A stretch of DNA of 64,000 nucleotides from Patescibacteria group bacterium (GTDB taxonomy: Bacteria; Patescibacteriota; Patescibacteriia; JBAZBY01): contig JBAZBY010000001.1 in assembly GCA_041671225.1 (NCBI GenBank), forward strand, positions 690,060-754,059, written 5' to 3'. The notes beneath the pieces were generated by a model. The model did no database searches. It worked only from the letters and a program-made list of their open reading frames with translations, and was not told the DNA's origin. Positions within the stretch are counted from its first letter, which is position 1. The number at the start of each line of letters is the position of its first letter. Positions 7,155 through 50,937 of this stretch are shown here, in pieces. Both the position numbers and the translations under genes were made by a program.

Positions 7155-7180
7155 TTGCCTGTTGCCTTAGTGGATTTCGG

Positions 7181-8741: not shown

Positions 8742-8839
8742 CGTATTCTCCTATCTTGGGGTTCTTGGCGGCACAGAGAAAAAAGGAGGGGACCACGCGG
8801 CACGAATGCAGCGCAGCCCCCTCAGGAACGAGCCGAGGA

Positions 8840-33181: not shown

Positions 33182-33282
33182 ATCCGCCAGCGCCCCTTGG
33201 CGCAGGCAGAAGCTCCTTCACTCTCAACCCCGGGGTGTGCCGTGACCTTTCCAGGTCTCTGGCCACGACGCACCCCCCTTTT

Positions 33283-33370
33283 TTCCGCTCTCCCGAGCGG
33301 TGGCAGCCGGGAGGTCAGAAATTCGTCTGGTTTCTAGCATAAGGTGGCTTGCACCTTGACAGCGGTCGTC
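33283..33370. promoter_or_regulatory. conserved upstream box (family copy 2): ttccgctctcccgagcggtggcagccgggaggtcagaaattcgtctggtttctagcataaggtggcttgcaccttgacagcggtcg
   Basis: see 24049-24130; contains TTGACA. Confidence 0.4.
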
Positions 33371-33407
33371 TCTTTTGGAGGCGGCCAAGAACAGAAGGAG
33401 ATAGACG

Positions 33408-34079
33408 ATGAAGCGGTTTATCCTGCTCATCACGCTCATCGTCGTTTCTTTGGTGTTCGCGGCAGCGCCCATCAACGCGCAGCAGCCCATCCAAGAGACG
33501 ACCTGGGGGAGGATCAAAGTTCAGTATGGGGAGCAGACCCATTTGGATCGGCCCAATACTCTGGATCCGAAAAGCATCGGAGCATACACGGCAATCGCCT
33601 GGCCGTTCCCCTGGGAGAGCCCGAACGACTGGCGCGGCGATGAAGGTGATCGTACGGACGGTGGTTGGTATAACTCGCGATGTGCCGGCTGGATTCCGAC
33701 GCACAGCGGTGCCGATCACTATGCTCGCGACCTTTCGCGGAGGTACAAGTCCACGGCTGGCGCGCGCGTCTACGCCGGACTTACCGCGAAGGTCGTGAAA
33801 ATCGAGAAGTATGGCGCCGGGTGGAGCGTCGTACTGTACTATCCGAAACAGCGACTGTGCATACGCTACGCCCACATGGACGGCATCGTCGTGAACGTTG
33901 GTTGGACTGTGTCCATGCGGCAGTACCTTGGATACGTTCTTGACCAGGGGAGTGGGTCTCACCTGCATCTGGTCGTTTATGAGAATGTGCCGGAGGGTTC
34001 AAACGGCTTCCCCGCGTATATTCCGAGCGTCTGTAACAGGGACACGTGGCACGCCTGCCGGGTCTACTTCTTCTCCTGA
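33408..34079 (+). CDS. secreted M23-family peptidase (small)
   Basis: signal peptide 'LLITLIVVSLVFAAAPINAQ'; 'HSGADHYARD' (HxxxD) and 'GSHLHLV' (HxH). Confidence 0.6.
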   Translation: MKRFILLITLIVVSLVFAAAPINAQQPIQETTWGRIKVQYGEQTHLDRPNTLDPKSIGAYTAIAWPFPWESPNDWRGDEGDRTDGGWYNSRCAGWIPTHSGADHYARDLSRRYKSTAGARVYAGLTAKVVKIEKYGAGWSVVLYYPKQRLCIRYAHMDGIVVNVGWTVSMRQYLGYVLDQGSGSHLHLVVYENVPEGSNGFPAYIPSVCNRDTWHACRVYFFS

Positions 34080-34153: not shown

Positions 34154-34738
34154 ATGAATCATATATTCAAAAAAATCAGCACGATACTTTTTTTTGTCAT
34201 TCTTTTATTTATTGCCACATGGTTTGTTTTTCAGGATCAAAGTAAGAATACAGGGGGAAAAAAGGACAGGTGGTCATCAGATGGTCTTGGTTTTCGGGTT
34301 CTGCTTCCAGAAACACTAGTTTTTTTTGACACATCCTCGCGTCAAATGGATGATGGCGAGATTCAAACCGTATCCTTCATTATTGAAGGGAGTGCAGACC
34401 CTGCCGATCCGTATGTCCCGCCCTCGTTAATGGTTTCCGTTCTTCCGAGTATGGGGCGCACTGCATCATTTTGGGCTGATCGCAAGATTTTTGGGGGATA
34501 CCCAGAGGGTACCGTTGTGTCTGATCGCATAGCCTCCTCAATTGCGAGAGAGGATTGTGTACAGCAAAAGGAGGGCATCAACGCAGGCATGCCAACTGAA
34601 CAAACCCTGATGCATGTTCATTATTGCGTTCACGATGATCAACTGTATATGCTTGGAATTCTTGCGAACACGGAATCTATGTTTTCCACTTTTGAAAATC
34701 TTGAGAAGGACTTCGTTCGGGATTTTGAATTCCTCTAG
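34154..34738 (+). CDS. hypothetical membrane-anchored protein
   Basis: signal anchor; no motif. Confidence 0.5.
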   Translation: MNHIFKKISTILFFVILLFIATWFVFQDQSKNTGGKKDRWSSDGLGFRVLLPETLVFFDTSSRQMDDGEIQTVSFIIEGSADPADPYVPPSLMVSVLPSMGRTASFWADRKIFGGYPEGTVVSDRIASSIAREDCVQQKEGINAGMPTEQTLMHVHYCVHDDQLYMLGILANTESMFSTFENLEKDFVRDFEFL

Positions 34739-34785
34739 TTTTTAACACCTGTCCCCGAAGCAATTTCTGAACTATACTTTATCCT

Positions 34786-36147
34786 ATGAATAAGAACATC
34801 ATTCTTGTCAGCCTGGCAGGCATTATTGCTGTCGTGACACTGGGTATTTTTATGATGTCTTTTACGAGGACAGAAGAAGGCAACAATACAACAACGAACC
34901 AGACCCAGCGTGTGAACGCCGCTGAGACGACAAAACGCATTCCAAATACTTTGTTCGAAAATGAGGGTGCGCTTGTGAAGGTGAATTTTAAGGGTGAAGA
35001 TTATTTGTTTGCAACAAGTGTCTATAATATGTTACGTCCCGGATCAACAGGCTCCGAAGAACTTATCCTGCAAGGTGAAGAGTGGCAGCCGATTTTGTAT
35101 TCATCGCTTCATGCGAATGATGTTCTTTTTCCCGGAGGACCACTGCTCCGTTTTGATCAAAGAACGCAGGAGATCTCCGAAACCGTCTCTCGCGATGAGT
35201 ATTTTCTTCGTGTGTATAACATAGAAAATGGCAACCTTGAAAATACTATTAGCTATCACACGGGAGATACCATTTTGACCTCGGGGGTTGAGATTGAAGG
35301 CGACGTTAAATATACGAATGTTTCCAGCGACTATCTCGTTGATTTTGCGGTGGATGCTTCGAACAAAAAGATCTATATGCTCGTCGCGATAGATGGTTCC
35401 AGCGGTGCGCTCTGGGGTGATTCAACATCAGAATCTTCTGTGGAAATTATTGAGGTTGACGTCGTGAATGGTACCGCTGAGAGTATTGTCTCATTCACAA
35501 GTGAAAAAGCTACTCTCGTGCATGAGGATGAGGCCGATACATGGTTATTGCCAACAGAGATTCATTATGTTGAAGGAGCGGTGCTTCTTACATGGAGAAA
35601 TAAACTGGAACGTGTCGATCTTCTTACTGGAAACCGTCAGGACATTCTTTCCTTGACGCAGGAAGATTGGGATGCAAACCGACAACTATCCGTTGAGAGT
35701 AACCCAACTGGCACAGCGGCCATTATCTTTGATTCAGTGGGGTATATGACGAATGAGGAAGAAAGTTCAATTCGATTATTCAACGCAGCTGACCGTACTC
35801 TCTCGGTCATTGGCCCGCTTTCTGCTGATATTGTACAACAACATCCTATTTGGAATGACTCAGGTACGCAGATGGTTACGACATCAAATACGAGTTCCAC
35901 CATCTATCAAATATCACTCGAAAATAATACACTGACATCGCTTGATAACATGGTCGTTGAGAGGGTTTATGATTGGCTTCCGTCAGGCGAGTTATTGGTA
36001 AGTATTTTTGATGTGTACGAGGATCCTGATGAGATTCCGGAAACGGACAGTAACTATCGTTCACAATTTTATCTCTACAATTTGGAAACAGGGCTTGGAG
36101 CGTCGTTAGGGAATTATCGCAGCCCGCATTATTTCGGCAGGGTATAG
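34786..36147 (+). CDS. hypothetical exported protein (453 aa)
   Basis: signal anchor 'IILVSLAGIIAVVTLGIFMM'. Confidence 0.55.
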   Translation: MNKNIILVSLAGIIAVVTLGIFMMSFTRTEEGNNTTTNQTQRVNAAETTKRIPNTLFENEGALVKVNFKGEDYLFATSVYNMLRPGSTGSEELILQGEEWQPILYSSLHANDVLFPGGPLLRFDQRTQEISETVSRDEYFLRVYNIENGNLENTISYHTGDTILTSGVEIEGDVKYTNVSSDYLVDFAVDASNKKIYMLVAIDGSSGALWGDSTSESSVEIIEVDVVNGTAESIVSFTSEKATLVHEDEADTWLLPTEIHYVEGAVLLTWRNKLERVDLLTGNRQDILSLTQEDWDANRQLSVESNPTGTAAIIFDSVGYMTNEEESSIRLFNAADRTLSVIGPLSADIVQQHPIWNDSGTQMVTTSNTSSTIYQISLENNTLTSLDNMVVERVYDWLPSGELLVSIFDVYEDPDEIPETDSNYRSQFYLYNLETGLGASLGNYRSPHYFGRV

Positions 36148-36224: not shown

Positions 36225-36253
36225 TTGCGAATCCTAGCGGGAAGTGGTATAAT
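36225..36253 (+). promoter_or_regulatory. sigma70-like promoter: TTGCGA, 17-nt spacer, extended -10 TGgTATAAT
   Basis: about 115 nt upstream of the sensor-domain paralog array. Confidence 0.5.
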
Positions 36254-36368: not shown

Positions 36369-37037
36369 ATGGATTTGATTACCGCATTACTTTTTCTTGT
36401 CGGTATCGCCGATGTGGTGATTGGCGTATATATTGGCATACAAAAACCAGTGACCACCATCCGTAAATCGTACACATGGGTGGTGTTTGGAACAGCTGGG
36501 TGGGTATTGGCGAATGCTGTTTTTCGACTTATGAGCACGGATGCCGCTGTTGAAATTGCGGAACGCCTCACGTTCTTATTCGGCACCGTAGCGACATCAG
36601 CCTTTCTCTACTTCTCTTTCGTTTTCCCATATACAAAGCGTCCCCTGAAGCAATGGATGTTTTTGTATGTAGTTTTAAGTGCTGTCGTCATTTGTATTTT
36701 TGCCTTATTTACAGAATTTTTTCTTGTTAGAAGCGTTTCAGTTGGATCACATGAAAGTATCAGTACCTATGGACAATTCTACGCAGTATTTTTTATTTGG
36801 TTTATTGGTACTTGGATATGGAGTATTGCGAATCTTCTATTGAAGTATAAGGATGCAGATGCGTTTTCTCGTTGGCAAATACGCATGATGCTGTTTGCGG
36901 TTCCGTTAACAATTATTCTCGCAATTCTTTTTGATCTCATTGCGCCGTATCTCCAGATTGCTGGCACAGGGTGGTTCGCTTCAGTATCATCGGTTATTTG
37001 GCTGGGTTTTACTGTTTATATTGTGATGAAACGATGA
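36369..37037 (+). CDS. stand-alone polytopic membrane sensor-domain protein, paralog A (ends ...YIVMKR)
   Basis: about 7 TM helices; 'DAFSRWQIRMM' block; homologous to the N-terminal membrane domain of the histidine kinase at 40191; stop overlaps the next start (ATGA). Confidence 0.65.
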   Translation: MDLITALLFLVGIADVVIGVYIGIQKPVTTIRKSYTWVVFGTAGWVLANAVFRLMSTDAAVEIAERLTFLFGTVATSAFLYFSFVFPYTKRPLKQWMFLYVVLSAVVICIFALFTEFFLVRSVSVGSHESISTYGQFYAVFFIWFIGTWIWSIANLLLKYKDADAFSRWQIRMMLFAVPLTIILAILFDLIAPYLQIAGTGWFASVSSVIWLGFTVYIVMKR

Positions 37038-37699
37038 ACACCACCGACATCCTTTCCTGGTTCAACATCGTGGTTGCCGCAGCAGAGCTCTATTTTGCAT
37101 TCTATATGCTGCTCACGCGCGTGCGGAGCAAGGTGAGCGTTTTTTATTTTTTGTTTTCCCTTGGAGTTGCGGGGTGGGTATACAGCATCGGCGGGTTTTA
37201 TCTGTTTGAGAATCCAGGGGTCGAGCGGTTTCACCTCAACCTCGCGTATATTTCCGCCTCGCTCATCATGTCGGCGCTCTTTCTCTTTGCCATGGTGTTT
37301 CCTTTCCAGAAGCGGCGACTGGGGCTGGAACACTATGCACTCGCGATCCTTCCATTCCTGGCATTTGCGGTCGCATCCTTCGCGCATCAGATCCTCACCG
37401 GTTACATCAAAGATCCCACGGAGTATTTCCTTGGTCCGCTGTACACGCCGTACACCATCTATATCGTGGGATATTATCTCATTGCCATGGCGCTGTTGGT
37501 GGAAAAGTACCGTATGAGTGACGGCATCCACCGCTGGCAGCTCAAGAATCTCATTTTGAGCCTGCTCTTTGCGGGCGTCATGGGCGTTACCTTCAACCTG
37601 CTGATCCAATTCTGGGGCATCGCGTATCTGAACCACGTGGGAACCCTTGCGTCGGTCATTTGGTTCAGCACGACCTTATACATTGTGATGAAGAGATGA
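37034..37699 (+). CDS. stand-alone membrane sensor-domain protein, paralog B
   Basis: 'DGIHRWQLKNL' block, ends ...LYIVMKR; ATGA overlap at both ends. Confidence 0.65.
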   Translation: MNTTDILSWFNIVVAAAELYFAFYMLLTRVRSKVSVFYFLFSLGVAGWVYSIGGFYLFENPGVERFHLNLAYISASLIMSALFLFAMVFPFQKRRLGLEHYALAILPFLAFAVASFAHQILTGYIKDPTEYFLGPLYTPYTIYIVGYYLIAMALLVEKYRMSDGIHRWQLKNLILSLLFAGVMGVTFNLLIQFWGIAYLNHVGTLASVIWFSTTLYIVMKR

Positions 37700-38376
37700 T
37701 TGACCAGCCATATTTTGCAATTGCGGCCATGATAATAATAGGGCTTTTTGATTTTGGATTCGCATCCTTTATTTTTACCCGCTATCAACGAGAGTCGCGG
37801 ATTATCATGTATGGCATGTTTGCGCTGATGGTTGGTGGGTGGGTTCTCCTCAATGGGGTTGGTCTACTCTTTGAGCGAGGCGGTGCAACCTCAGATTTTT
37901 TTGGTCGAAGTGCATTTGTCTTTGCGGCTTTCATTTTTCCGTTTATGTATGTCTTCTCTGTTCTTTTCCCATTCCCATCAGCGCGTATTGACGGACGGTT
38001 CGTTTTTCTTGCCCTGCTGCCGGCAATACTTTTGTCCGCCCTTGCATACTTCACCGACGCACTCATTCAGGGGTTTGATTTAACTCGGTATGCACAAACA
38101 ATACCCGGTGAGGGTTTTTGGCTCTACGTGCTGTATATACTGATATTCTTTGGATTAATTCTTGCGGAACTCCTCGGTAAATTCCGGCGTTCCGATGGCA
38201 TTCATCGCTGGCAACTAAAGTACTTAATTATTGTCATAGCCCTTTCTGGCTTTATCGGCATTATCACGGTACTTATTTTGCCTTATATCTGGTACTTTGA
38301 CTCACTTGCATGGATTGGGCCATGTTCATCAATCATTTGGCTTGGTGGGAGTATGTATATTGTTATGAAGAGATGA
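37696..38376 (+). CDS. stand-alone membrane sensor-domain protein, paralog C
   Basis: 'DGIHRWQLKYL' block, ends ...MYIVMKR. Confidence 0.65.
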   Translation: MIDQPYFAIAAMIIIGLFDFGFASFIFTRYQRESRIIMYGMFALMVGGWVLLNGVGLLFERGGATSDFFGRSAFVFAAFIFPFMYVFSVLFPFPSARIDGRFVFLALLPAILLSALAYFTDALIQGFDLTRYAQTIPGEGFWLYVLYILIFFGLILAELLGKFRRSDGIHRWQLKYLIIVIALSGFIGIITVLILPYIWYFDSLAWIGPCSSIIWLGGSMYIVMKR

Positions 38377-38440
38377 TTTATTTACGACAGCAATAAGCAC
38401 GTCTAATTTCTACTTGATTAGTTTTCCCAGGTACTGACAA

Positions 38441-39142
38441 ATGAGTTATATTATTAGAAAAGTAAAATCAGTTTTTAAAACTATTTATTTCACTTTTTTT
38501 TATAAAGAATTATTTAAAGATTACCGCTTTACTATTAGTAAAGCTTCGACTGAAGTAGAACGAAGGGAGTTGTATCGATTAAGATACCAGGTGTACTGCG
38601 AGGAATATGGTTATATTGATAGGAATAACTGTCCAGACGGATTAGAAAAAGATGTTTATGATGAGCATTCAGATTACTTTATTATTCGTGATAGTAAAAA
38701 TAATATTGCTGCAACGGTAAGAATTATTAAGAATTCTCAAGCAGGATTTCCTCTTGAGAAAAATTTTCACCTAAATATTGAAACATCAAATCTTGATCAT
38801 GATCATTTAGTCGAGATTTCAAGACTTATAGTTGCTAGAAAGTATCGAAAAAAATTATTGCTATTGTTTCTAGTGAAGGGTTTATATTTGTATGCGATAG
38901 AACAAAAGATAACTCATGCATATTTTATAATCGATGAAAAACTCTATCCTCTTCTCTTGAAGATTAAAGTACCTGTAATAAAAATTGGAACACCGGCAAT
39001 CTATCAGGGTTTAACATTTCCATGTCTTGTTGATGTTACTGAATGGGAACGTAATGTTAGAAGAAGTAGAAGTTTTAATAGGTTTTATTATTTTGGCGGT
39101 ATGGATTTAAGCGATGACGGAAATAAGTATGAAGTTCATTAA
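38441..39142 (+). CDS. GNAT-fold N-acyltransferase of the FeeM / N-acyl amino acid synthase type
   Basis: 'RRELYRLRYQVYCEEYGYID....DGLEKDVYDEHSDYFIIRD', 'VEISRLIVARKYR' match the conserved blocks of the exosortase-associated N-acyl amino acid synthase family; very AT-rich. Confidence 0.65.
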   Translation: MSYIIRKVKSVFKTIYFTFFYKELFKDYRFTISKASTEVERRELYRLRYQVYCEEYGYIDRNNCPDGLEKDVYDEHSDYFIIRDSKNNIAATVRIIKNSQAGFPLEKNFHLNIETSNLDHDHLVEISRLIVARKYRKKLLLLFLVKGLYLYAIEQKITHAYFIIDEKLYPLLLKIKVPVIKIGTPAIYQGLTFPCLVDVTEWERNVRRSRSFNRFYYFGGMDLSDDGNKYEVH

Positions 39143-39159
39143 GATTTACGAGGGATACC

Positions 39160-40194
39160 GTGCAAGGCATTCAAGATAATTTGGGCGAGTATTTTAATTT
39201 TACGCCAGGTGTTTTTCTATATATATATATACTAACATTTATTCCATCATGGATCGCACTGATATTATCACTTCGTTATCTTAAGAGACGCAACATTCAC
39301 GCTAGTCTCTTTTGGCTCATTATCCTTTTTGGTTTATTGGCCTTGCCGTATCTGTATGTATTAGTTGGGAGCGTAGGTCTTCCTTGGCAATTTTTGAGCG
39401 CGATTATTCTCATTCCGACATACAGCTTCTCAAAAATTTTAATGAACAGAAAAACATATTCTGATACCTTCGGGGGTTCATTTTTTTGGACTTTATATGC
39501 AAAAGTGTATGATTTGTTGCTTCTTTTCAGTCCCTATAAACAACTTGTATCTCAGCTTTTAGAAGAAATAAGAGTAACTAAGCCAGCTGGGAATATTATT
39601 GATATTGGTTGCGGTACAGGAAATCTTGCGGTGTCACTTTCTGCGAATACAAACTATACTATTTTAGGAATAGATAATTCTATTGGAATGCTTACGCGTG
39701 CACAAAAAAAACATTATGATAAACAAAGGGTGCTTTTTCAAAAAGTTGATCTAGAGAATGAAAATTTTATATCTGAGATAGATGGAAAATTTGATATTGC
39801 TATTATTAGTAATGTGCTTTATACACTTGGGTCACCAATTATGGTTCTTAAGCAAATCAAAGCATTATTAAACAATGATGGCTTCTTAATTATCTCAGAA
39901 CCTAAGCAGGGTTCTAGTTTATATGCTTTATTCAAAGAGCACTATAGACAATTGTTTAGTCATTTTAGTATTAATAATCTAATCATATCTGTTAGGGATT
40001 TTTTTATTTTATTAGTTGTTGGTGTATTTAATTTTGCAATTTCTTTTAGAGCACGGGGTAGGGGGTCATATTCTTTTTTTTTACCGCACAATCTTACTCA
40101 ACTAGTTCAGGAATCTGGATTCAGTATTGAAAAAATTGGTGCGTCTTATGCAAACCAAAATATCTTACTTAAAGCAAAAAAAATACTAACATGA
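39160..40194 (+). CDS. membrane-anchored class I SAM-dependent methyltransferase
   Basis: 2-3 N-terminal TM helices, motif I 'IIDIGCGTGNLAV', 'DIAIISNVLY'; stop overlaps the histidine kinase start (ATGA). Confidence 0.7.
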   Translation: MQGIQDNLGEYFNFTPGVFLYIYILTFIPSWIALILSLRYLKRRNIHASLFWLIILFGLLALPYLYVLVGSVGLPWQFLSAIILIPTYSFSKILMNRKTYSDTFGGSFFWTLYAKVYDLLLLFSPYKQLVSQLLEEIRVTKPAGNIIDIGCGTGNLAVSLSANTNYTILGIDNSIGMLTRAQKKHYDKQRVLFQKVDLENENFISEIDGKFDIAIISNVLYTLGSPIMVLKQIKALLNNDGFLIISEPKQGSSLYALFKEHYRQLFSHFSINNLIISVRDFFILLVVGVFNFAISFRARGRGSYSFFLPHNLTQLVQESGFSIEKIGASYANQNILLKAKKILT

Positions 40195-42983
40195 ATGCAA
40201 TTCTTGTTTTTTCTTCTGTTCTAGCAGCCCTTGTATTTATTTTAGGTGTCGTTATTTTGTTGCGGGGAAAAAATCAGAGAACGAATATTGTATTCTCATT
40301 GATTACTTTATCAGCATTTTTGTGGACTGTTTCAAATATATTTGTAGATACCTCATATACTTCTTCTGCTGCATTGTTTTGGAGTCGTACGGCGTTACTT
40401 GGGCCGATTTTTATTGCAAGCCTTTTTGTGATTTTTGTTTCGATTTTCCCTTCTGGCGTGCTAAGTCTTCAGAAAAAATTATTTTATTCACTCCCAATTC
40501 TTCCGTTCCTACCGTTTATCTATACAAACTCAAATATCTCAGCTGTTAAATTTGTTAATGGGACAGTTCAAGCAACACCAGGAGTATTATTCTATTTTGT
40601 GCTAGTCTATTTTGCAGTATTTTTTGGGTTTGGATTTTGGACACTTATTCAGAAATATAGAAAGTCTTACGGTTTACAACGACAGCAGATCACTTATGTA
40701 TTTTTGGGATTTTTTCTTACTGTAGGAATCGCAACCTTCACAAATTTATTGTTACCACTTTTTGGGATTCAAAATGTGCAAAGCCTTGGGCCAGCTTCTA
40801 CATTTTTTCTTATATCATTTATTGGCTATGCAATCATTCGCCATCGTCTCCTTGACATAAGTATCATCATTAGACGGTCCATCGTCTATGTCTTCCTCAT
40901 CGCATTTGTTGCCGGTTCCTTTGCAGGCGTCACCTTCCTCTCCGGACGTCTATTTTCAGAGGCCCTCGGTCTCGGGCAATTTCTCACTTCCGGCCTCGTT
41001 GCTTTACTGGTTGTTCTTCTTCTTGATCCTCTCAAAAATTATATTTCTCGCGTAACAGACAAAATTTTCTTTAAGGCAAAAATTGATTACAGTACCGTCC
41101 TGCAAAAACTCTCAACGACCATGGCAGAAAAGATCGAGATGGACCCGTTGTTGGAAGAAGTTGCGCATATAACAAAAGAAGAGCTCAAGGTAGAATCTGT
41201 GATAACGATCCCAAAGAACAAGCAGGGGAACTTTCGCGCACGCGTGAACCGTCCGCCGCATGATATGTCTCTCATTTTGAAGCAGGATTCTGAGCTCATT
41301 AAATTCCTTTCAACAGGAGAGATTTCTGTATTGGATTCCTTAGAGCGCAAGATCGAAGACACCACAAATGACCGTGAGCGTAAGAAGCTTGAAAAATCCA
41401 AAGAAGACATGAAGCTTGCCCATGCAGCTATTGCCGCGCCCATCATGCGCAAAGGGGAACTCACAGGGGTCTTTTTTATTGGGCCAAAGAAGTCCGGCGA
41501 TAGCTTTTCCCTTGAGGAGCTCCGGCTTTTCAAAGTGCTGGGGCCTCAGCTTGCAACTGCCCTTGAAAAGGCGCGCCTCTTTGAAGAGGTAAAAGCCTTT
41601 ACCGCGCAGTTGCAACAGCGCGTTGAAAGCGCAACCAAGGAATTGCGGGAACGGAACGCATACCTTGTTGCCTTGCAGGATGTCTCCGCGGCCATCACCC
41701 GCACGTTTGACTTTGATAAAGTCACGCAAGAAATCACGAATGCGATTGCGGATGAACTTGGTTTTGTCGGCGGGCTTATGGTGTTTCTCGATAACGATGG
41801 ACGGAACGTCTTTCCGCAGGCAATCACACAAACAAAGATAACAGAGCGCGCCCTAAAACTTCTGCCAACGAACTTCAAGGAGTTTAAGGGAGATCTCTAC
41901 AAAGAGAATACGCTGGATCACCGCGTTATCCGCGAAGGCAAACGCAGGATTACCACACAGCTTTCTGACGTTATTTCACCACCGGTTCCAAAATTGATCG
42001 TGAAAGGAATTCAGAAGCTGCTTGGCATTAAGACATTAGTACTCGTCCCAATTTTTTCGGAAGATAAAGCAGTGGGAGCGATTGACTTTGCACTTGCGAA
42101 AGAGGAGAAAGATATCAGCGCCCGTGAATTTGAAATCATGCAGGCACTTGCAGACCAAACAGGGATCGCGTACCGGAACTGGCGGTATGTTGAACGTATT
42201 AAAGAAGCAAACCGGCAGCTTGAAGACGCAAATGAGCGCCTGATGCAGCTGGATCAGGCGAAGACGGAGTTCGTCTCAATTGCTTCTCACCAGCTCCGCA
42301 CGCCAATGACCGGCATCGCGGGGTATCTTTCTATGCTGGTGGGAGGGGACTTTGGCAAGCTCATCCCTGAGCATGGCAAAATTTTGAAGCAACTGCTTGA
42401 AGAAAGTCAACGCATGATACGGCTCATCAACTTGTTCCTCAACGTCTCCAAGATCGAAGCGGGCAAGTTTGAGCTTACCTTCCAACCCACCCAGCTTGAG
42501 GACGTGGTGGAGGGTGAGGTGAAGGAATTAATTCGCTTGGCAGCAGAGAAGAAGCTCAAACTCACCTTCAATAAACCAAAGAAAAAGCTTCCTCTTGTGA
42601 CGGCTGATGGCGACAAACTGAAGGATGTTATTTTGAACCTTGTGGACAATGGCATTAAATACACGGCAGAGGGGAGTATCGTTGTGGATATGGCAAAGGT
42701 TGGGAATGAGGTGCATGTTTCCGTGAAGGATACCGGCATCGGCATTGAACCGGATGATGCAAAACATTTGTTCCAAAAGTTCGTCCGCGCTTCCGGCATC
42801 GCGCAGATCCACCCTGATGGTTCCGGCTTGGGACTCTTTATCGCAAAGAAGATCGTTGAGGCGCACGGCGGCAGCATTTGGGTTGAAAGCAAAGGGCAGG
42901 GCAAGGGCAGCACGTTCTTTTTTGCCATTCCAATCGAAAAAGCAAAGGTCTTATCAGCAGCGACAACAACAAAGAAAATATGA
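40191..42983 (+). CDS. sensor histidine kinase: polytopic N-terminal membrane domain, GAF-type domains, HisKA, HATPase_c
   Basis: H-box 'SIASHQLRTPMTGIAGYLSML', N-box 'LNLVDNGIKYT', G-boxes 'DTGIGI' and 'GSGLGLFIAKKIVEAHGGSIW'; first about 660 nt AT-rich like the upstream insertion. Confidence 0.9.
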   Translation: MNAILVFSSVLAALVFILGVVILLRGKNQRTNIVFSLITLSAFLWTVSNIFVDTSYTSSAALFWSRTALLGPIFIASLFVIFVSIFPSGVLSLQKKLFYSLPILPFLPFIYTNSNISAVKFVNGTVQATPGVLFYFVLVYFAVFFGFGFWTLIQKYRKSYGLQRQQITYVFLGFFLTVGIATFTNLLLPLFGIQNVQSLGPASTFFLISFIGYAIIRHRLLDISIIIRRSIVYVFLIAFVAGSFAGVTFLSGRLFSEALGLGQFLTSGLVALLVVLLLDPLKNYISRVTDKIFFKAKIDYSTVLQKLSTTMAEKIEMDPLLEEVAHITKEELKVESVITIPKNKQGNFRARVNRPPHDMSLILKQDSELIKFLSTGEISVLDSLERKIEDTTNDRERKKLEKSKEDMKLAHAAIAAPIMRKGELTGVFFIGPKKSGDSFSLEELRLFKVLGPQLATALEKARLFEEVKAFTAQLQQRVESATKELRERNAYLVALQDVSAAITRTFDFDKVTQEITNAIADELGFVGGLMVFLDNDGRNVFPQAITQTKITERALKLLPTNFKEFKGDLYKENTLDHRVIREGKRRITTQLSDVISPPVPKLIVKGIQKLLGIKTLVLVPIFSEDKAVGAIDFALAKEEKDISAREFEIMQALADQTGIAYRNWRYVERIKEANRQLEDANERLMQLDQAKTEFVSIASHQLRTPMTGIAGYLSMLVGGDFGKLIPEHGKILKQLLEESQRMIRLINLFLNVSKIEAGKFELTFQPTQLEDVVEGEVKELIRLAAEKKLKLTFNKPKKKLPLVTADGDKLKDVILNLVDNGIKYTAEGSIVVDMAKVGNEVHVSVKDTGIGIEPDDAKHLFQKFVRASGIAQIHPDGSGLGLFIAKKIVEAHGGSIWVESKGQGKGSTFFFAIPIEKAKVLSAATTTKKI

Positions 42984-43411
42984 TCACACCACCCCGACCC
43001 ATGAGAGTCCTCGTTGTGGAGGACGAACCGCTCATCTCCAGTCTGTATGCGCGCGCACTTGGCAAGGATAAGAATATCACTGTTGAGACAGCAAAAGATA
43101 AGATTGATGCTGTGGCAAAGATAGAACATTTTGAGCCGGATATCGTGTTTTTGGATCTTATGATTCCTCTTGGGACGCATGAGTTCACCGCGGATTATGA
43201 TCACCCCGCCGGCTTTGACGTTTTAGAAACGGTCAAGCGTAATCCGCACACAAAAAATGCAAAGGTGATCGTCCTTTCCTGTTTGGATGGACAGCAACAT
43301 AAGGCGCATGCGGAATCATTGGGCGCCGATGCATACGTCGTGAAATCAGAGATCGACCCGCATGAATTGATCGAACGATCCAGACAGATGTTTGCCAAAC
43401 AGGCGCGATAA
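42980..43411 (+). CDS. single-domain response regulator (CheY-like receiver only)
   Basis: 'RVLVVEDEPLI', phospho-acceptor 'FLDLMIP', 'VIVLSC', 'AYVVK'; no output domain. Confidence 0.85.
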   Translation: MITPPRPMRVLVVEDEPLISSLYARALGKDKNITVETAKDKIDAVAKIEHFEPDIVFLDLMIPLGTHEFTADYDHPAGFDVLETVKRNPHTKNAKVIVLSCLDGQQHKAHAESLGADAYVVKSEIDPHELIERSRQMFAKQAR

Positions 43412-43413
43412 GC

Positions 43414-44673
43414 ATGGCTGAGCGCAAAAAATCTGTTGTCATCTGCGGAGGCGGTTTTGCGGGGCTTTCTGCTGCGCGCAGTATCGCGCGTTCACCAGGT
43501 ATGGAGCATGCCCAGATAACAGTGTTGGATGATTCGGTGTTTTATGTCTACCATGCGTGGCTCTATGAAGTGGCGACCTTTACTATTGAGCACGGCATTT
43601 CACAGAAGCGACTTCGAGATTTTGTATGCATTCCTACTGAATCGCTCGAGTATCTTTTTTCAGAAACCAATATACGTTTTGTACAGGATCGCGTTACGAG
43701 TGTTGACCTTGCGAGTAAGACGGTGCGGTGTGAGAGTGGTCGTAGTTATCAGGGTGATGTTGTGCTCTATGCACTAGGGAGCATCACAAATGATTTTGGT
43801 GTTCCGGGTGTTCCAGAGCACACCGTTGGGTTGAAAAATCTTGAAGATGCACTGACGATCCATGAACGTATTCAGGAACTTTTTCGCGATGTGCAGCTGC
43901 ATCCCAGGCAGCGTAAGGTGGTGATTTGCGGTGGCGGGCTTTCTGGGGTGGAAGTTGGCGCAGAGCTGATGCACTACATCCGTCACATGGAGCGTGATCA
44001 CGCGTTACCGGAAGGAAGGGTTACAGTGGAGATTATTGAGGCAGGTCCAAAAATCCTTTCTATGCTTCGTGATTCTGTCCGTAAGATTGCAGAATATCGT
44101 CTGAAGAAGCTCGGCGTGACCGTGCGTCTCAATACACGCATCACGAGCATCGCACACGATGAATATGCAGTAGAGGATGGTGCGGTTTCGCGTCACGACC
44201 TGTTTATTTGGACCGGTGGCGTGAAGCCAAATCCCGTCGTGCAGAATATCCCCGGAATGCCCTTAGACGGGCACTCCTGCATCATGACGGAGCCGACGTT
44301 GCAGGTGCAGGGACATCCCGGCGTTTTTGCATTAGGTGATGCGGCAGCATGTATGCCACTCGGAGGAAAGCATCCGCTTCCAGCAACAGGGCAGATTGCC
44401 TGGAAAGAGGGTATCGCAGTCGGGCCAAACATTGCGGCGTACCTTACCGGAAAGCCCTTGCACGCCGTGCATGTGAAACAGGAGGGCCCGGTGGTACCAC
44501 TTGGCGGCAAGTGGGCCATTGCTGTGCTTGGACCTCATACCGTTTTTTCCGGATTCATCGGATTTGTCATACGGCGCATTGCGGATTTTCGCTATTTAAG
44601 GTCACTGCTACCATTCTGGGAAGCGGTTCGGTTTGTCGCGGAAGGTACGCGTGTCTTTTCCAAAAACGACTAG
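43414..44673 (+). CDS. ndh: type II NADH dehydrogenase / FAD-dependent pyridine nucleotide-disulfide oxidoreductase
   Basis: two Rossmann GxGxxG motifs ('VVICGGGFAGLSAA', 'VVICGGGLSGVEVGAEL'). Confidence 0.75.
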   Translation: MAERKKSVVICGGGFAGLSAARSIARSPGMEHAQITVLDDSVFYVYHAWLYEVATFTIEHGISQKRLRDFVCIPTESLEYLFSETNIRFVQDRVTSVDLASKTVRCESGRSYQGDVVLYALGSITNDFGVPGVPEHTVGLKNLEDALTIHERIQELFRDVQLHPRQRKVVICGGGLSGVEVGAELMHYIRHMERDHALPEGRVTVEIIEAGPKILSMLRDSVRKIAEYRLKKLGVTVRLNTRITSIAHDEYAVEDGAVSRHDLFIWTGGVKPNPVVQNIPGMPLDGHSCIMTEPTLQVQGHPGVFALGDAAACMPLGGKHPLPATGQIAWKEGIAVGPNIAAYLTGKPLHAVHVKQEGPVVPLGGKWAIAVLGPHTVFSGFIGFVIRRIADFRYLRSLLPFWEAVRFVAEGTRVFSKND

Positions 44674-44729
44674 AAAAGACACTACCAGAAAAGTTCAAAA
44701 TATGGTTTACTATATGCAGTGAACCTCTT

Positions 44730-45923
44730 ATGAAATTGCGCAAACTCACTGCAGATTTAGTCAGGGGGAAGCGAGTCCTTCATCGCGTATGTTTGGATGT
44801 GAAGTTTGATAAAAAGAACGGTCAGCGCATCGTAAAGGATGACAAGCGTTTGCGTGAGATTCTTCCCACGATACGGTTTCTCAGAAAGGCCAATGCGAAG
44901 GTCATCATTTTAACGTATATTGGCAGACCCAAAGGCAAGAGGGTTCCTGAGCTTTCTGCTGATCCGGTTGCCGCGCGGCTTGGTGAACTCCTACATATAC
45001 GAGTAAAAAAAGTTGATGATTGTATTGGTCCGGCTGTTCAAAAAGCCATAGCCGCTATGAAGCCCCGCGATGTGTTGATGCTGGAAAATGTACGTTTTCA
45101 TGCAGAAGAAGGAGAAGGAACAAAAGGAAAAACTGACGGGAGTGATACTTTCGGGAAAAAACTTGCAGCACTTGCTGATGTCATTGTAATGGACGCCTTC
45201 GGGCAGATGCACCGCGCAGTACCTTCCATTTTGCATATCCAGAAGTATATGCGTAAACGCGCCGCTGGTTTACTACTAGAAAAAGAAGTGAAGGAATTGG
45301 ATCGTGCTTTGAATAGTCCGTATCATCCCTTTACCGTGATCATCGGCGGAGCAAAAGTGGAAACAAAACTTCCTGTTATGACAGCGCTCATGAAGCATGC
45401 AGATGATATGCTCGTTGGCGGCGTCCTGGCAAATACATTGCTCAAAGCAAAGGGCATTCAGACGGGGCGTTCGCTTGTTGATGATGACACGATGTTCATG
45501 CTTAAGAAATTCAATCTTACGGATAAGCGTTTGCATTTGCCCGTTGATGTGATGGTGGAGGATGCTGCTGGCAAGCGCCACAAGCGCGCGGTGGGAGCGG
45601 TGCAACCGCGCGAAAGGATTCTGGATATTGGGCCAGAAACGATCGTACTCTTCCATGACATTCTCAAAAAAGCAAAGATGGTACTTTGGAACGGTCCGCT
45701 TGGGTATTTTGAAGATCCCACGTATGCCATTGGTACAAACGAGGTCGGCAGGATTCTTGGCAAGGTGTCTGCCTACACGATCATTGGTGGCGGAGAAACC
45801 ATTACCGCGGTCAGAAACGCGCGCGCAGAAAAACATATTGATTTCATTTCAACCGGCGGCGGCGCCATGCTCGAATTTTTAACCGGGAAAACACTCCCAG
45901 GCATTAAACCTCTCTTGGTATGA
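44730..45923 (+). CDS. pgk: phosphoglycerate kinase
   Basis: 'GKRVLHRVCLDV...DDKRLREILPTIRFL...AKVIILTYIGRPKG', 'GGGA' hinge; the ORF-track N-terminal extension overlapping ndh is rejected. Confidence 0.9.
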   Translation: MKLRKLTADLVRGKRVLHRVCLDVKFDKKNGQRIVKDDKRLREILPTIRFLRKANAKVIILTYIGRPKGKRVPELSADPVAARLGELLHIRVKKVDDCIGPAVQKAIAAMKPRDVLMLENVRFHAEEGEGTKGKTDGSDTFGKKLAALADVIVMDAFGQMHRAVPSILHIQKYMRKRAAGLLLEKEVKELDRALNSPYHPFTVIIGGAKVETKLPVMTALMKHADDMLVGGVLANTLLKAKGIQTGRSLVDDDTMFMLKKFNLTDKRLHLPVDVMVEDAAGKRHKRAVGAVQPRERILDIGPETIVLFHDILKKAKMVLWNGPLGYFEDPTYAIGTNEVGRILGKVSAYTIIGGGETITAVRNARAEKHIDFISTGGGAMLEFLTGKTLPGIKPLLV

Positions 45924-47176
45924 AGATAGAAAAACTCAACGCACGAGAAATTCTTGACTCGCGCGGTAATCCAACAATTGAAGCAGTGGCCTTCGGCAAT
46001 GGACACCACGCGGCCGCGGCTGTTCCTTCTGGCGCGAGCACGGGCTCACATGAAGCGCTTGAACTGCGCGACCGTGACGAAAAACGCTTTGACGGACTCG
46101 GCGTGATGAAGGCAGTTGCCAATGTGAAGGAAACCATTGCCAATGCGGTGGTCGGCAAGGAGTTTGTTGATGTCACGCAATTGGATGCGTTCTTGCTGAA
46201 GCTTGATGATTCCCCCAAGAAGACGAACCTTGGTGCAAATTCACTTCTTGCGGTTTCTCTCGCGTTTGCACGCCTTGATGCGGAAAATAAGGGGCAGCAC
46301 CTTTATGAGTATCTTGCCAAGACATATGGCTTTGGTCCGCTGCCAAAGAAGATGCCGCGCCTCATGATGAATGTGATCAACGGCGGGAGTCACGCAGACA
46401 CGCAGCTTGAGATCCAGGAGTTTCACATTGTGCCGCGTCAGGATAGCGCGCTGGAAATGGTGCGTGTTGGTGCGGAAGTATTCCATGCATTGAAGCAGGT
46501 ATTAAAGCGACAAAAAAAAGTAACGCTCGTAGGCGATGAAGGCGGCTATGCGCCAGAGTATCGCGACGGACGCGAAGTCCTGGCCGTTATGCAGCAGGCA
46601 GTGGAGCTTGCCGGATACATACCTGGAAAGGATGTGGATTTTTCAATTGATGCCGCAGCAACGGAGCTTTTTGACATTGAGACGGGGAAGTATCGGTTAA
46701 ATGAGAAAACGTTGAGCGCAACACAGCTCATCAGCGTCTATCGCGATTGGATAAAAGAATTTCCTATCATTTCACTTGAAGATGGACTTGCAGAGGATGA
46801 TTTTGAAGGCTGGAAGAAATTAAAACAAGAGTTTGGAGAAAAAATGACGCTCGTCGGCGATGACCTTTTTGTGACGAATCTTGTGCGATTAGAAGAAGGT
46901 ATTAAAGAAGATCTCGCGAATGCGATCCTTATTAAACCGAATCAGATCGGTACATTGACCGAGGCGGTACAGGCAATTCAACGCGCGCAGAAGGAAAAAA
47001 TGGCGATCGTCATATCCCATCGGTCAGGAGAAACCTGCGACCCGTTTATCACCGATCTGGCGGTTGCCTCGCATGCGAATTATTTGAAGGCGGGATCCCT
47101 CTCACGCGGTGAACGTCTCACGAAGTACAATCGCTTAATGGCGATTGATGACCTTCTGCATCAAACAGGAGCATAA
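45920..47176 (+). CDS. eno: enolase
   Basis: 'AREILDSRGNPT', 'SGASTGSHEALELRD', 'IKPNQIGTLTE', 'SHRSGETCD'. Confidence 0.95.
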   Translation: MKIEKLNAREILDSRGNPTIEAVAFGNGHHAAAAVPSGASTGSHEALELRDRDEKRFDGLGVMKAVANVKETIANAVVGKEFVDVTQLDAFLLKLDDSPKKTNLGANSLLAVSLAFARLDAENKGQHLYEYLAKTYGFGPLPKKMPRLMMNVINGGSHADTQLEIQEFHIVPRQDSALEMVRVGAEVFHALKQVLKRQKKVTLVGDEGGYAPEYRDGREVLAVMQQAVELAGYIPGKDVDFSIDAAATELFDIETGKYRLNEKTLSATQLISVYRDWIKEFPIISLEDGLAEDDFEGWKKLKQEFGEKMTLVGDDLFVTNLVRLEEGIKEDLANAILIKPNQIGTLTEAVQAIQRAQKEKMAIVISHRSGETCDPFITDLAVASHANYLKAGSLSRGERLTKYNRLMAIDDLLHQTGA

Positions 47177-48771
47177 TGCCAAACGCACGGGGGAAGAAAT
47201 CGCAAGAGCAGCAGCGTGCCGTTTTGGGACCGCTTGCTTTGGTTATCATTGATGGTTTTGGCATTACGGATGTTACAGAGGGAAACGCCGTCGTTGCCGC
47301 AAAGACGCCGAATTTTGATGCCTACATGAAAAAGTATCCCCATACGGAGCTTGCTGCGTCCGGGAAGGACGTTGGGTTGCCGGATGGCCAGGATGGCAAC
47401 TCAGAAGCCGGGCATATGAACATCGGCGCTGGCCGCGTTGTGGAGCAAGATGCGGTGCTCATTTCTGAATATATCAATACCGGTGCATTTTTTCAGAATC
47501 CCGCATTCATTCAGGCAGTGCGTCATGTGAAGCGGAAGAGATCCAACATGCATATCATGGGGCTACTCACGGGTTTTAATTCCGCGCATTCGTATCTGGA
47601 TCATCTTATTGCTTTGCTTGCCCTCATGCGCAATGAAGGGCTCACAAAGGTCTATTTGCACCTCTTTACCGACGGGCGTGATATGTCCCCATATTCTGCG
47701 ATCGATCTGCTGCGCAAGGTGCAGCGCGTCATAGCGGATAACCATGCGACGATCGCAACGATTACCGGCAGACTCTATGCGATGGATCGCAAAAAGGAAT
47801 GGTCGCGTACGGAATCGACATATAACACGCTTGTTCACGGACGCGGCAAGCACACCGCGCGTACCGCAGAAGAAGCGGTGCTCAATGCATATAATCGCGG
47901 GCAAAGTGATGAATTTATTGAGCCAACGGTTATTGTTGATGAAAAAGGCAAGCCGCTTGCGCGTATCGCCGATGATGACGCAGTGATCTTTTTTAATCTC
48001 CGCTCGGATCGCGCTCGTCAACTTGCAAAGGTATTCGTGCAAAAGAATTTTGCAGCACGGAATCCGCATGCGTTCGAGCCGCAGGGACTGCCAAAGAACC
48101 TTCTCTTTGTTGCGATGACGGATTTTGGACCGGATCTTGAAGGAATGATTACGGCGTACCCTGCAAAAAAAATTCTTCAGACGCTACCGACGCAGTTAAA
48201 AGGACTTCGACAGATGTACATCGCAGAAAAAGAGAAGTACGCGCATGTGACGTACTTCATGAATGGGGGATACAAAGATCCTGTAGCAGGCGAAGAGCGC
48301 GTCATTGTTCCATCCCCGCGTCTGGATCATTATGATGAAAAGCCGGCAATGAGTTCGCGGGAGATCACGGAGATAGTGCTTGCATCCTTAAAAAAGGATG
48401 CACATGACGTGTATGTCATCAACTATGCACCGCCGGATATGATCGGACATACGGGCAATTTTGAAGCAACCGTCAAGGCAGTTGAAGGAATTGATGTGGA
48501 ATTGGGCAGGCTTTCAGAGGTATTGCTCAAAAAAAATGGCGTGATGCTGCTGACCGCTGACCATGGTAATGCTGAACAAATGCTTCATGAGGACGGCCGT
48601 GTTGATTCTGAGCATACAAAGAACCCCGTTCCTTTTATCGTGATCGGCAACACACAAATAAAGAAAGGCATGCTGAGAAAGCACGGGAGACTCGCTGATA
48701 TCGCTCCAACAATACTCACACTGCTTGGGAGGAAGGTGCCACCGCTCATGACGGGGAAAAGTTTATGGTAG
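47176..48771 (+). CDS. gpmI: 2,3-bisphosphoglycerate-independent phosphoglycerate mutase (copy 1)
   Basis: 'VIIDGFG', 'GNSEAGHMNIGAGR', 'LFTDGRD', 'ADHGNAE'. Confidence 0.9.
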   Translation: MPNARGKKSQEQQRAVLGPLALVIIDGFGITDVTEGNAVVAAKTPNFDAYMKKYPHTELAASGKDVGLPDGQDGNSEAGHMNIGAGRVVEQDAVLISEYINTGAFFQNPAFIQAVRHVKRKRSNMHIMGLLTGFNSAHSYLDHLIALLALMRNEGLTKVYLHLFTDGRDMSPYSAIDLLRKVQRVIADNHATIATITGRLYAMDRKKEWSRTESTYNTLVHGRGKHTARTAEEAVLNAYNRGQSDEFIEPTVIVDEKGKPLARIADDDAVIFFNLRSDRARQLAKVFVQKNFAARNPHAFEPQGLPKNLLFVAMTDFGPDLEGMITAYPAKKILQTLPTQLKGLRQMYIAEKEKYAHVTYFMNGGYKDPVAGEERVIVPSPRLDHYDEKPAMSSREITEIVLASLKKDAHDVYVINYAPPDMIGHTGNFEATVKAVEGIDVELGRLSEVLLKKNGVMLLTADHGNAEQMLHEDGRVDSEHTKNPVPFIVIGNTQIKKGMLRKHGRLADIAPTILTLLGRKVPPLMTGKSLW

Positions 48772-50375: not shown

Positions 50376-50937
50376 AGTTTCAGCACGACACATACACCTC
50401 ACTGCAGCGGATATTGCAGTGCTTTTTGGGGAGGGATACATCCTTGGAAAGCATCGCGTTATTTCGCAGCCAGGACAGTTTTCAAGCGTTGAAAAGGTGA
50501 TAATAAAAGGACCAAAAGGCGAAATGGCCGGTGTCCGGGTTGTTGGTCCTGCACGCAAAAAAACACAAGTTGAACTCTCTATGACGGATTGCCGCACACT
50601 GGGCGTTGAAGCGATGCTGCGCGTTTCTGGGGATCTTACGGGGACGCCTGGCGGGGTTACCATTATCGGCCCAAAAGGCGAGATAACACTTATTGAAGGC
50701 GTTATCGTTCCACAGAGGCACCTCCACATTGAGCCAGAGTATGCAGAAGCGCTTGGGCTCACACATGGTGATACCATTGCAGTGAAGGTTGAAGGTGAAC
50801 GAGCTGTGACATTGCATAATGTCGCAGTGCGTTCACGGGAAGGAATTGATGCGCTTGCGCTTCATATAGATACCGATGAGGGTAATACAGCAGGAGTTAT
50901 CAAACCAACATATGCATCATTTATCGGTAAAGAATGA
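50359..50937 (+). CDS. pduL: PduL-type phosphate acyltransferase (phosphotransacetylase/propanoyltransferase)
   Basis: duplicated PduL halves: 'VSARHIHLTAADIAVLFGEGY...SQPGQF', 'GVTIIGPKGEITLIEGVIVPQRHLHIEPEYAEALGL', 'ALALHIDTDEGNTAG'. Confidence 0.8.
   Translation: MHIPIEVSARHIHLTAADIAVLFGEGYILGKHRVISQPGQFSSVEKVIIKGPKGEMAGVRVVGPARKKTQVELSMTDCRTLGVEAMLRVSGDLTGTPGGVTIIGPKGEITLIEGVIVPQRHLHIEPEYAEALGLTHGDTIAVKVEGERAVTLHNVAVRSREGIDALALHIDTDEGNTAGVIKPTYASFIGKE

Follow-up and report, generated by a model that had tools for sequence, protein, structure and literature searches.

Why does a single histidine kinase gene change its base composition part of the way through? The question is raised by the window analysed here, i.e. 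the whole stretch of 64,000 nucleotides at positions 690,060 to 754,059 of contig JBAZBY010000001.1 (assembly GCA_041671225.1) from a Patescibacteria group bacterium. A block of low GC content covers two genes of this window, encoding an acyltransferase and a methyltransferase, and ends inside the histidine kinase gene that follows them. The original prediction, made from the letters alone, took the block as a horizontally acquired cassette recombined in frame onto a resident kinase core. Our analysis suggests that the block is one allele of a hypervariable module which fronts and enters a vertically inherited kinase, and that this module is a unit of signal synthase and cognate receptor swapped as a whole among Kerfeldbacteria-like Patescibacteria. 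We put the probability of this reading at about 0.62. The case for exchange rests on the turnover of gene content and on phylogenetic conflict, not on base composition.

A composition step inside the kinase gene

The mean GC content of the window is 50.1%, and the lowest three of its 64 bins of 1 kb are those of 38-41 kb, with 34.7, 33.1 and 36.4% GC, the next lowest bin having 41.0%. The GC content stays at 27-37% throughout from ~38.25 to 40.8 kb when measured in windows of 300 nt. A maximum-likelihood fit with two breakpoints over 36-44 kb places the low-GC segment, which we call the variable module, at 38350..40825 (no strand assigned), with GC 0.322 inside and 0.474 outside and a likelihood ratio of 166. 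Among 2.5-kb windows across the 64 kb, the one with the lowest GC content begins at 38351 (GC 0.324); such windows have a mean of 0.502 with a standard deviation of 0.046, and the minimum outside the block is 0.431. The drop had been claimed for 38380-40860, close to where the fit puts it.

The right border lies within the kinase gene, as had also been claimed. The GC content at third codon positions (GC3) is 0.21 in the acyltransferase gene, 0.25 in the methyltransferase gene and 0.285 in kinase residues 1-235, versus 0.43-0.60 in the remainder of the kinase, 0.52 in the response regulator behind it, and 0.39, 0.70 and 0.43 in the three sensor paralogs in front of the block, which are indeed GC-normal. 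The GC3 change point of the kinase is codon 214 (0.26 to 0.55), and at the DNA level the composition switches at about nt 40826-40830. Since the drop sits at third codon positions, it is not an amino-acid effect. The dinucleotide signature corrected for base composition gives delta* 0.125 for the block against 0.066 +/- 0.024 for the other windows, i.e. ~2.5 standard deviations, and only the region of 6.5-9.5 kb exceeds it. The discontinuity is thus significant by the GC fit, by GC3 and by the dinucleotide signature.

The block does not have the features of a genomic island or a mobile element. There are no integrase, transposase or other mobile-element genes in its neighbourhood, the direct and inverted repeats flanking its borders are just short, chance-level ones, and no tRNA or tmRNA target is found at the borders, the sole tRNA of the window being at 21.2 kb. 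No second module of this kind was found within the 64-kb window.

A variable sensor on a conserved kinase core

The kinase (40191..42983, + strand, 930 aa) consists of a seven-transmembrane (7TM) HisKA_7TM domain, two transmembrane (TM) helices, two GAF domains, HisKA and HATPase_c, according to Pfam. The scores are 53.4 bits for HisKA_7TM (PF16927), 63.3 for HisKA and 95.0 for HATPase_c, the combination that defines the architecture of HisKA_7TM sensor histidine kinases. About twenty full-length homologues of the same architecture were found, all in Patescibacteria. The variable part is the HisKA_7TM sensor (residues 1-213, 40191..40829, +, GC3 0.26), and the resident core comprises the two TM helices, a linker, the two GAF domains, HisKA and HATPase_c (40830..42983, +). 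At their border lies the junction motif Y213-A-I-I-R-H-R-L-L-D222 (40827..40856, +), which is conserved in the seven kinases aligned.

The closest orthologues, P0002 and P0003 of the loci L002 and L003, are 73-82% identical to the kinase past residue ~213 and 29-41% before it. By domains, the sensor is 35-41% identical and the TM linker, both GAF domains and the kinase domains are 66-82% identical, the core as a whole being 79% identical to L002 and 73% to L003. The change point of identity to L002 is at residue 213, from 29% to 78%, and coincides with that of GC3. Six pairs of close-core relatives have their change points at residues 207-215, just before YAI(I/V)RHRLLD, and in further pairs the break comes later, at the latest where the first GAF domain ends; the left border of the module is gradual. 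The motif may supply the homology patch for in-frame joining. The nearest relatives of the window's sensor are in P0027 of L005 (44-46%) and P0004 of L004 (43-44%), whose kinase cores are far from that of the window, with about 28-30% identity for L005 and 50% for L004. The variable segment hence ends inside the kinase gene at the boundary of sensor and core, as it does in pherotype loci.

Turnover of the cassette among related loci

Scanning species-representative genomes with the kinase gave 32 loci, and 29 sufficiently complete kinases were analysed, i.e. those of the window and of 28 related species; all comparisons of loci are between species. About one third of the 32 record titles name the Patescibacteria group and six name Candidatus Kerfeldbacteria, the others being generic or apparently misassigned ('uncultured Gammaproteobacteria', 'Izemoplasmatales', 'bacterium' and one Omnitrophota).

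The window, L002 and L003 are syntenic on the right side of the block, through the response regulator (78% identical to L002 and 68% to L003), Pyr_redox, PGK and enolase (75-77% identical) genes. Their cassettes are GNAT-fold acyltransferase plus methyltransferase in the window, GNAT plus ThiF, a ThiF-type adenylyltransferase, in L002, and methyltransferase plus a 226-aa protein of no known family in L003. The only other loci with a GNAT and membrane-methyltransferase cassette before the kinase are L004 and L005. Elsewhere the combinations are GNAT with ThiF, in some loci with an additional small protein or a methyltransferase; a 275-aa unknown family with a methyltransferase; a methyltransferase with a 430-aa unknown family; GNAT with a ~500-aa protein faintly similar to the adenylate-forming PaaK; and nitroreductase with ThiF. 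L008 has a macrolide-type glycosyltransferase, with a family partner in L035 (the profile scan covered the L008 member), and L017 has an alpha-oxoamine synthase of the AONS/KBL/SPT/CqsA superfamily. The cassette families F6, F13 and F16 and the 226-aa protein of L003 (h226) have no Pfam or NCBIfam matches.

No relative lacking any insert was found among the complete loci. Of the 28 related loci, 26 have intact and recognisable upstream sequence, and in each of these a co-directional gene or cassette stands directly 5' of the kinase, which contradicts a one-off insertion missing from the relatives. The cassette of L014 sits 22 nt from the kinase, that of L020 has an unannotated stretch of ~790 nt, the contig of L016 stops 104 nt 5' of the kinase, and several of the upstream genes are unannotated singletons.

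The composition step is not particular to the window either. The sensor GC3 is below the core GC3 in all 29 orthologous kinases, with a mean difference of 0.28 and a minimum of 0.09. Three HisKA_7TM kinases from Saccharibacteria, Woesebacteria and Pacebacteria, used as control, have differences of 0.04, 0.015 and -0.013, so the step is not intrinsic to 7TM-coding DNA. The GC3 of the module rises with that of the host (r = 0.74, slope 0.53). As the step is found throughout and the module tracks its host, the AT-richness cannot be taken as the mark of a recent transfer from an AT-rich donor. A lasting feature of a module that is hypervariable and exchangeable is the better reading, and its cause may be a gene pool rich in AT, amelioration that is still partial, a mutational bias towards AT in fast-evolving genes, or several of these together.

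Two of the related loci deserve a description of their own. L005 (GCA_034520665.1, 1-10217), in a Patescibacteria genome of 30% GC, has three consecutive modules: a methyltransferase with a 7TM-GAF protein; GNAT, a 507-aa protein and a methyltransferase with a 7TM-GAF protein; and GNAT plus membrane methyltransferase with a 7TM-GAF kinase, behind which come three receiver-only regulators. The second 7TM protein of this locus, behind the cassette of GNAT, family F5 and methyltransferase, scores 138 bits to the sensor of L021, which has the same cassette, versus 93 bits to its own genome's other sensor, a weak difference that we do not rely on. The orthologous kinase of a Kerfeldbacteria metagenome-assembled genome (MAG; L030, 8296-11128) is split into three open reading frames (ORFs) of 618, 92 and 196 aa, and is either a pseudogene or the result of assembly frameshift errors.

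The sensor follows the cassette and the core follows the genome

Sensor identity is nearly uncorrelated with core identity across pairs of loci (Spearman 0.16), and all pairs with at least 45% sensor identity have the same cassette type. The mean sensor identity is 45.6% in same-cassette pairs versus 29.4% in different-cassette pairs (label permutation p <= 1e-4); the core identity is equal in the two groups, with 49.7 and 50.8%, respectively. The divergence of GNAT matches the sensor's (Mantel rho 0.44, p = 0.005) but not the core's (-0.12). Core divergence correlates with PGK (rho 0.64) and enolase (0.31), and sensor divergence has a rho of 0.07 with each. Because the core tracks the housekeeping genes and the sensor tracks the cassette, we take the core to be resident and the cassette and sensor to be exchanged. 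As in a pherotype locus, cassette genes and sensor vary together and separately from the core and the rest of the genome.

The trees of the two kinase halves, which the original prediction had proposed to compare, are incongruent. The window's core groups with L002 and L003 at 100% bootstrap and its sensor with L004 and L005 at 64%. The sensor tree also has L002+L027 (99%), L007+L011 (98%), L013+L022 (97%), L008+L035 (99%) and L019+L025+L029+L033 (92%), and the clades of the sensor tree have 0% each in the core tree, save L007+L011 with 17%. Conversely, the core tree supports L004+L006 and L019+L031 at 100%, and these two and the window's core clade have 0% in the sensor tree.

The chimeric-kinase interpretation is therefore supported in an amended form: the sensor is uncoupled from the core, but the event is a replacement of a module in a conserved hypervariable slot rather than an insertion. 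Horizontal acquisition likewise stands on the gene-content turnover and the tree conflict, but not on AT-richness as a sign of recent import.

Genes of the module

The genes from 36369 to at least 44673 are all co-directional, with overlaps or gaps of no more than 64 nt. The block itself holds only the GNAT and methyltransferase genes ahead of the kinase, and the gaps of 64 and 17 nt leave no space for another ORF. Start and stop codons overlap as ATGA between methyltransferase and kinase and between kinase and response regulator. The cassette genes and the kinase adjoin each other on one strand and may be co-transcribed. The best sigma-70-like promoter match, TTGCGA-17-TATAAT with TG (36225..36253, +), is a consensus match upstream of the first 7TM gene and possibly marks the start of a transcript through the whole gene string.

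The first gene of the block encodes a GNAT-fold N-acyltransferase of the LuxI/FeeM type (38441..39142, +, 233 aa, no TM segment). Its scores exceed the curated cut-offs (in brackets) for TIGR03694 with 129.6 bits (111.95), Acetyltransf_5 PF13444 with 63.6 (22.4), FeeM PF21926 with 54.2 (27) and Autoind_synth PF00765 with 36.3 (24), as expected of LuxI/FeeM-type acyltransferases. The nearest solved structures are LuxI-type acyl-homoserine lactone synthases, 5w8c/5w8a (E 4e-5), 6wn0 and 3p2f. It also matches models of the ornithine-lipid N-acyltransferase OlsB at E 1e-8, far under their cut-offs. The genomic association of TIGR03694, the PEP-CTERM/exosortase system-associated acyltransferase, is absent from the surroundings: no exosortase/PEP-CTERM family was found among the annotated genes within 10 kb either side. 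The protein is 52% identical to the GNAT of L004 and 41% to that of the sister genome L002. We regard it as a putative synthase whose product would resemble an N-acyl amino acid.

The second gene encodes a membrane-anchored class I S-adenosylmethionine (SAM)-dependent methyltransferase (39160..40194, +, 344 aa) with at least two N-terminal TM helices (hydrophobic segments at residues 18-36 and 51-69) and a catalytic domain at residues ~126-324. Methyltransf_23, 31, 12, 25 and 11 of Pfam all match residues 126-324 above cut-off, which places it in the class I SAM-dependent family, and no specific equivalog was matched at its cut-off. Homologues of 320-334 aa are at the equivalent position in L004 and L005. 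It is a putative tailoring enzyme.

Behind the kinase follows a receiver-only response regulator of 143 aa (42980..43411, +, PF00072), whose start forms the ATGA overlap with the kinase stop.

Proposed working of the locus

We propose that a module consists of at least one small-molecule biosynthetic gene and the 7TM sensor of the kinase, and that whole modules would be replaced by recombination during species divergence. The right-hand breakpoint would usually be at YAI(I/V)RHRLLD, at the end of the 7TM domain, so that an incoming sensor is joined in frame to the existing core of two TM helices, GAF-GAF, HisKA and HATPase. In the window, the acyltransferase would make an amphiphilic compound of the N-acyl amino acid type, and the membrane methyltransferase would modify it. 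The product may be released or may partition into the membrane, and would be bound by the cognate 7TM domain. From there the two conserved TM helices and the GAF domains would relay the signal to the kinase, and phosphorylation of the receiver-only response regulator by the kinase would follow. As a sensor would have to match its synthase, the two would be exchanged and co-evolve together, and the outcome would be species- or strain-specific 'dialects', as in agr and comQXP. The cassette of L017, with its enzyme of the CqsA superfamily, fits such a logic of synthase and receptor, as do the ThiF or methyltransferase genes that precede 7TM kinases in Saccharibacteria and Pacebacteria too.

Alternative explanations

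Could the step arise without any exchange? Practically no chance is left to a chimera of metagenome assembly, in which sequences of two organisms would have been joined at the conserved motif of the kinase. The junction is at a place where mis-joins could in principle happen, but the identical 930-aa kinase was found in independent assemblies from four sources (NCBI, with the records MFA6512446.1 and MFA6943979.1, JGI, ENA and Logan), on contigs from 20-50 kb up to one of 1.03 Mb in a Patescibacteria MAG, and therefore mis-assembly is not the cause. The block is moreover flanked on both sides by syntenic GC-normal genes, and the structure recurs in 29 species. It is also very improbable that the low GC just reflects the amino acids of a membrane domain, in which Phe, Ile, Leu, Tyr, Asn and Lys abound. 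The sensor is very hydrophobic and its GC at first and second codon positions is somewhat below that of the core, yet the largest shift is at third positions, the lowest GC3 is that of the soluble GNAT, the adjacent 7TM paralogs and the two TM helices of the core (GC3 0.43) are not depressed in the same way, and the three control kinases have no step. A stronger competitor, though still improbable in our view, is that nothing was transferred and that cassette and sensor evolve fast in place under diversifying or relaxed selection with AT-biased mutation, while stronger selection holds the GC of the core. The step in all 29 orthologues, the correlation of module GC3 with host GC3, the lack of mobile-element genes, flanking repeats or a tRNA at the borders, and the failure of the searches to turn up a close donor all agree with it. 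Against it, sister genomes differ in gene content (methyltransferase, ThiF, a gene of no known family), sensor clades with 92-99% bootstrap conflict with core clades with 96-100%, and GNAT divergence tracks the sensor and not the core. The sensors are 52% identical versus 44% for the cores between L002 and L027, 44 versus 28% between the window and L005, and 60 versus 55% between L029 and L033. In such pairs the sensor is as similar as the core or more so, an outcome that faster evolution in place cannot give.

Another alternative accepts the exchange of modules and concerns what they do. The locus might be a private homeostatic loop, in which a membrane aminolipid made by OlsB-like N-acylation and then methylation is monitored by the 7TM domain. 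This feedback on a membrane lipid is a serious alternative as to function, and the data fit a secreted or a membrane-resident product alike; as a whole we consider it rather unlikely. The match of the GNAT to the OlsB models speaks for it, and so do the membrane anchor of the methyltransferase, a sensor lying wholly within the membrane and a kinase that adjoins central metabolism genes in many species. The chemistries of the cassettes are very unlike each other, though, including alpha-oxoamine synthase, glycosyltransferase, ThiF and adenylate-forming enzyme; a fast turnover of cassette types suits signals or specialised metabolites better than a housekeeping lipid; and the top curated matches of the GNAT are the LuxI/FeeM/TIGR03694 group.

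Several observations weigh against an exchanged synthase-receptor module. The trees were built by neighbour-joining on corrected p-distances with bootstraps, and the sensor clade of the window, L004 and L005 has just the 64% given above. The GC3 change points vary from residue ~210 to ~450 in most other species, with outliers at ~100 and ~660, and the identity step between the window and L003 is at residue 152. All loci come from metagenome assemblies, the cassette types are partly based on a BLAST clustering of our own, and several cassette families are unannotated. Exact look-ups gave no within-species variants: the response regulator had no record and the left-flank 7TM gene was found in the same context only. 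The response regulator is without an output domain. Because module GC3 tracks host GC3, the AT-richness could arise or persist in place, e.g. through AT-biased mutation. Finally, even the nearest relatives of the module in the window have no more than 43-52% identity to it (sensors 43-46%). Searching the sensor against 5.8 billion proteins with a word index gave one partial match (59% over 34% of the query), the scan of JGI metagenomes gave at most 37-41% identity, and the species-representative genome scan with the middle region of the kinase (residues 236-670) gave matches of at most 44%. From these identities the swap in the window's genome appears to be old and its donor unsampled.

Comparison with known signalling loci

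The genes of autoinducer synthases and sensors are usually adjacent and co-evolve as a cassette (PMC3376566). The variable region of comQXP, which comprises comQ, comX and the 5' part of comP, ends inside the receptor kinase gene (PMC6334282), and the same holds for agr (PMC10482373). In the agr locus of Staphylococcus (agrB, agrD and the sensor half of agrC), as in the window, the signal genes adjoin the kinase and the sensor varies on a conserved kinase core and regulator (PMC10482373). Unlike the window, agr has AgrD, a ribosomal peptide that AgrB processes, and its alleles segregate among members of a species. The window's locus has no peptide precursor; it has small-molecule enzymes of several chemistries across the related loci, varies between species and has a HisKA_7TM sensor unrelated to AgrC. 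ComQXPA of Bacillus subtilis has the same layout, i.e. cassette and sensor 5' end versus core and response regulator, but its signal, ComX, is a prenylated peptide and its polymorphism occurs among strains of a species, whereas the window's locus is known from comparison between species. Since it has no ribosomal peptide with a processing enzyme, this locus is an analogue and not a member of the agr/ComQXPA kind.

LuxM/LuxN, CqsA/CqsS, LqsA/LqsS and PhcB/PhcS resemble the window in having a synthase of acyl chemistry that adjoins a polytopic membrane histidine kinase sensing a lipophilic product, which for the window is our proposal. The signal made by PhcB, a SAM methyltransferase, is a fatty-acid methyl ester. 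These systems differ in being proteobacterial, in their fixed gene content and in their unrelated sensor domains, and we found no description in the literature of sensor-domain swapping onto a conserved core in any of the four. CqsA is a PLP (pyridoxal phosphate)-dependent enzyme of the alpha-oxoamine-synthase type (PMC3376566), and the cassette position of L017 holds an enzyme of the same superfamily. The GNAT of the window resembles FeeM and the other N-acyl amino acid synthases from environmental DNA, and TIGR03694, scoring above both curated cut-offs; the pairing with a 7TM kinase is not in these family definitions, and no exosortase/PEP-CTERM gene is nearby.

No description of the locus was found in the searchable literature. 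Compared to pherotype-type loci of synthase and receptor, it would be new in its small-molecule chemistry, its variation between species and its hosts in the candidate phyla radiation (CPR), if its function is signalling as we propose.

Surrounding genes

Three genes for stand-alone HisKA_7TM membrane proteins precede the block. The first (36369..37037, +, 222 aa, no kinase domain) scores 36.4 bits to PF16927, above the cut-off, ends in ...YIVMKR* at the position homologous to the kinase junction, and falls in a clade of stand-alone 7TM proteins apart from the kinase sensors; being 59% identical to 7TM-a of L002, it is a vertically inherited orthologue. The second (37034..37699, +, 221 aa, GC3 0.70), whose start overlaps the preceding stop as ATGA, has no close orthologue in L002. 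The third (37696..38376, +, 226 aa), also with an ATGA overlap, is the left conserved anchor of the variable block and is 51% identical to 7TM-b of L002 and 41% to a truncated homologue in L003. The three are mutually only ~26% identical and all end in ...YIVMKR*.

Arrays of two to four such 7TM-only genes are found 5' of the cassette in the window (36369-38376), L002, L004, L006, L010, L011, L018 and L032; in other species the array members are ~470-aa 7TM-GAF proteins without a kinase. The array genes are ATGA-joined, orthologous between species and all stop with ...YIVMKR* at the position homologous to the swap junction, and their final 48 nt are 71-73% identical in DNA. They could be decoys, co-receptors or transporters. 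We also considered them as displaced sensors, the third gene being the original sensor of the kinase orphaned by the insertion. We rejected this idea because the stand-alone genes share only 19-27% identity with the sensors of the sister kinases and form a clade of their own, with interspecies orthologues 51-59% identical.

Further to the left, two M23 peptidase genes (31379-34079) are unusually GC-rich, with 58-59% GC and GC3 0.71-0.72. In the first, FlgD_ig is accompanied by a weak Por_Secre_tail domain at the C-terminus. In L002 only its last ~100 aa (56%) and the first ~65 aa of the second (42%) are conserved, and therefore the region left of the 7TM genes is also mosaic. The proteins of 194 and 453 aa at 34154-36147 have no Pfam match, a moderately AT-rich GC content of 0.43-0.44 and, for the 453-aa one, one relative, in L010. 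As both are absent from L002 and L003, the variable region reaches left of the 7TM array.

Right of the response regulator, genes for Pyr_redox, PGK, enolase, two iPGM, PTA and ACK follow in the 3' direction. The kinase and regulator are directly 5' of this conserved group, with its two tandem iPGM paralogs (43414-52000), in the window, L002, L003 and at least 11 other loci, and the synteny of PGK and enolase with the kinase holds in at least 13 species. This suggests that the system may regulate, or share expression with, the ATP-yielding part of fermentation.

Elsewhere in the window, the region of 6500-9500 has the most atypical dinucleotide signature (delta* up to 0.16), 60-62% GC and long ORFs overlapping on opposite strands (6957-7649 on the + strand and 7317-8741 on the - strand). 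The GC content changes abruptly from 41% in 20-21 kb to 63% in 21-22 kb, adjoining the only tRNA of the window (21198-21268, minus strand). A full-length bacterial class A RNase P RNA is found at 59009-59462 (195.7 bits).

Implications

A GC step within a gene can be a stable, family-wide mark of a hypervariable module and not the scar of a recent transfer, which calls for caution when such steps are used to detect transfers. The YAI(I/V)RHRLLD junction, as an apparent exchange point for sensors that spares kinase function, could help to engineer chimeric sensor kinases.

To our knowledge, cell-to-cell signalling is essentially uncharacterised in CPR bacteria, and we know of no ligand for the HisKA_7TM domain. 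A conserved kinase that repeatedly gains new sensors and biosynthetic genes is a concrete candidate for CPR signalling, and what the adjacent cassettes make is a candidate class of ligands for HisKA_7TM.

We speculate, at somewhat less than even odds, that the locus is a lineage-wide, chemically diversified locus of self-recognition or quorum sensing in Kerfeldbacteria-like Patescibacteria. Units of signal chemistry and 7TM sensor would have been swapped repeatedly onto one core beside glycolysis and fermentation genes, with N-acyl amino acid derivatives, alpha-amino-ketones and glycosylated or adenylated compounds as products. If this is true, bacteria with reduced genomes that are probably attached to hosts would own private chemical dialects, and the locus would show how sensor kinases are re-wired in nature, module by module, at a defined junction motif.

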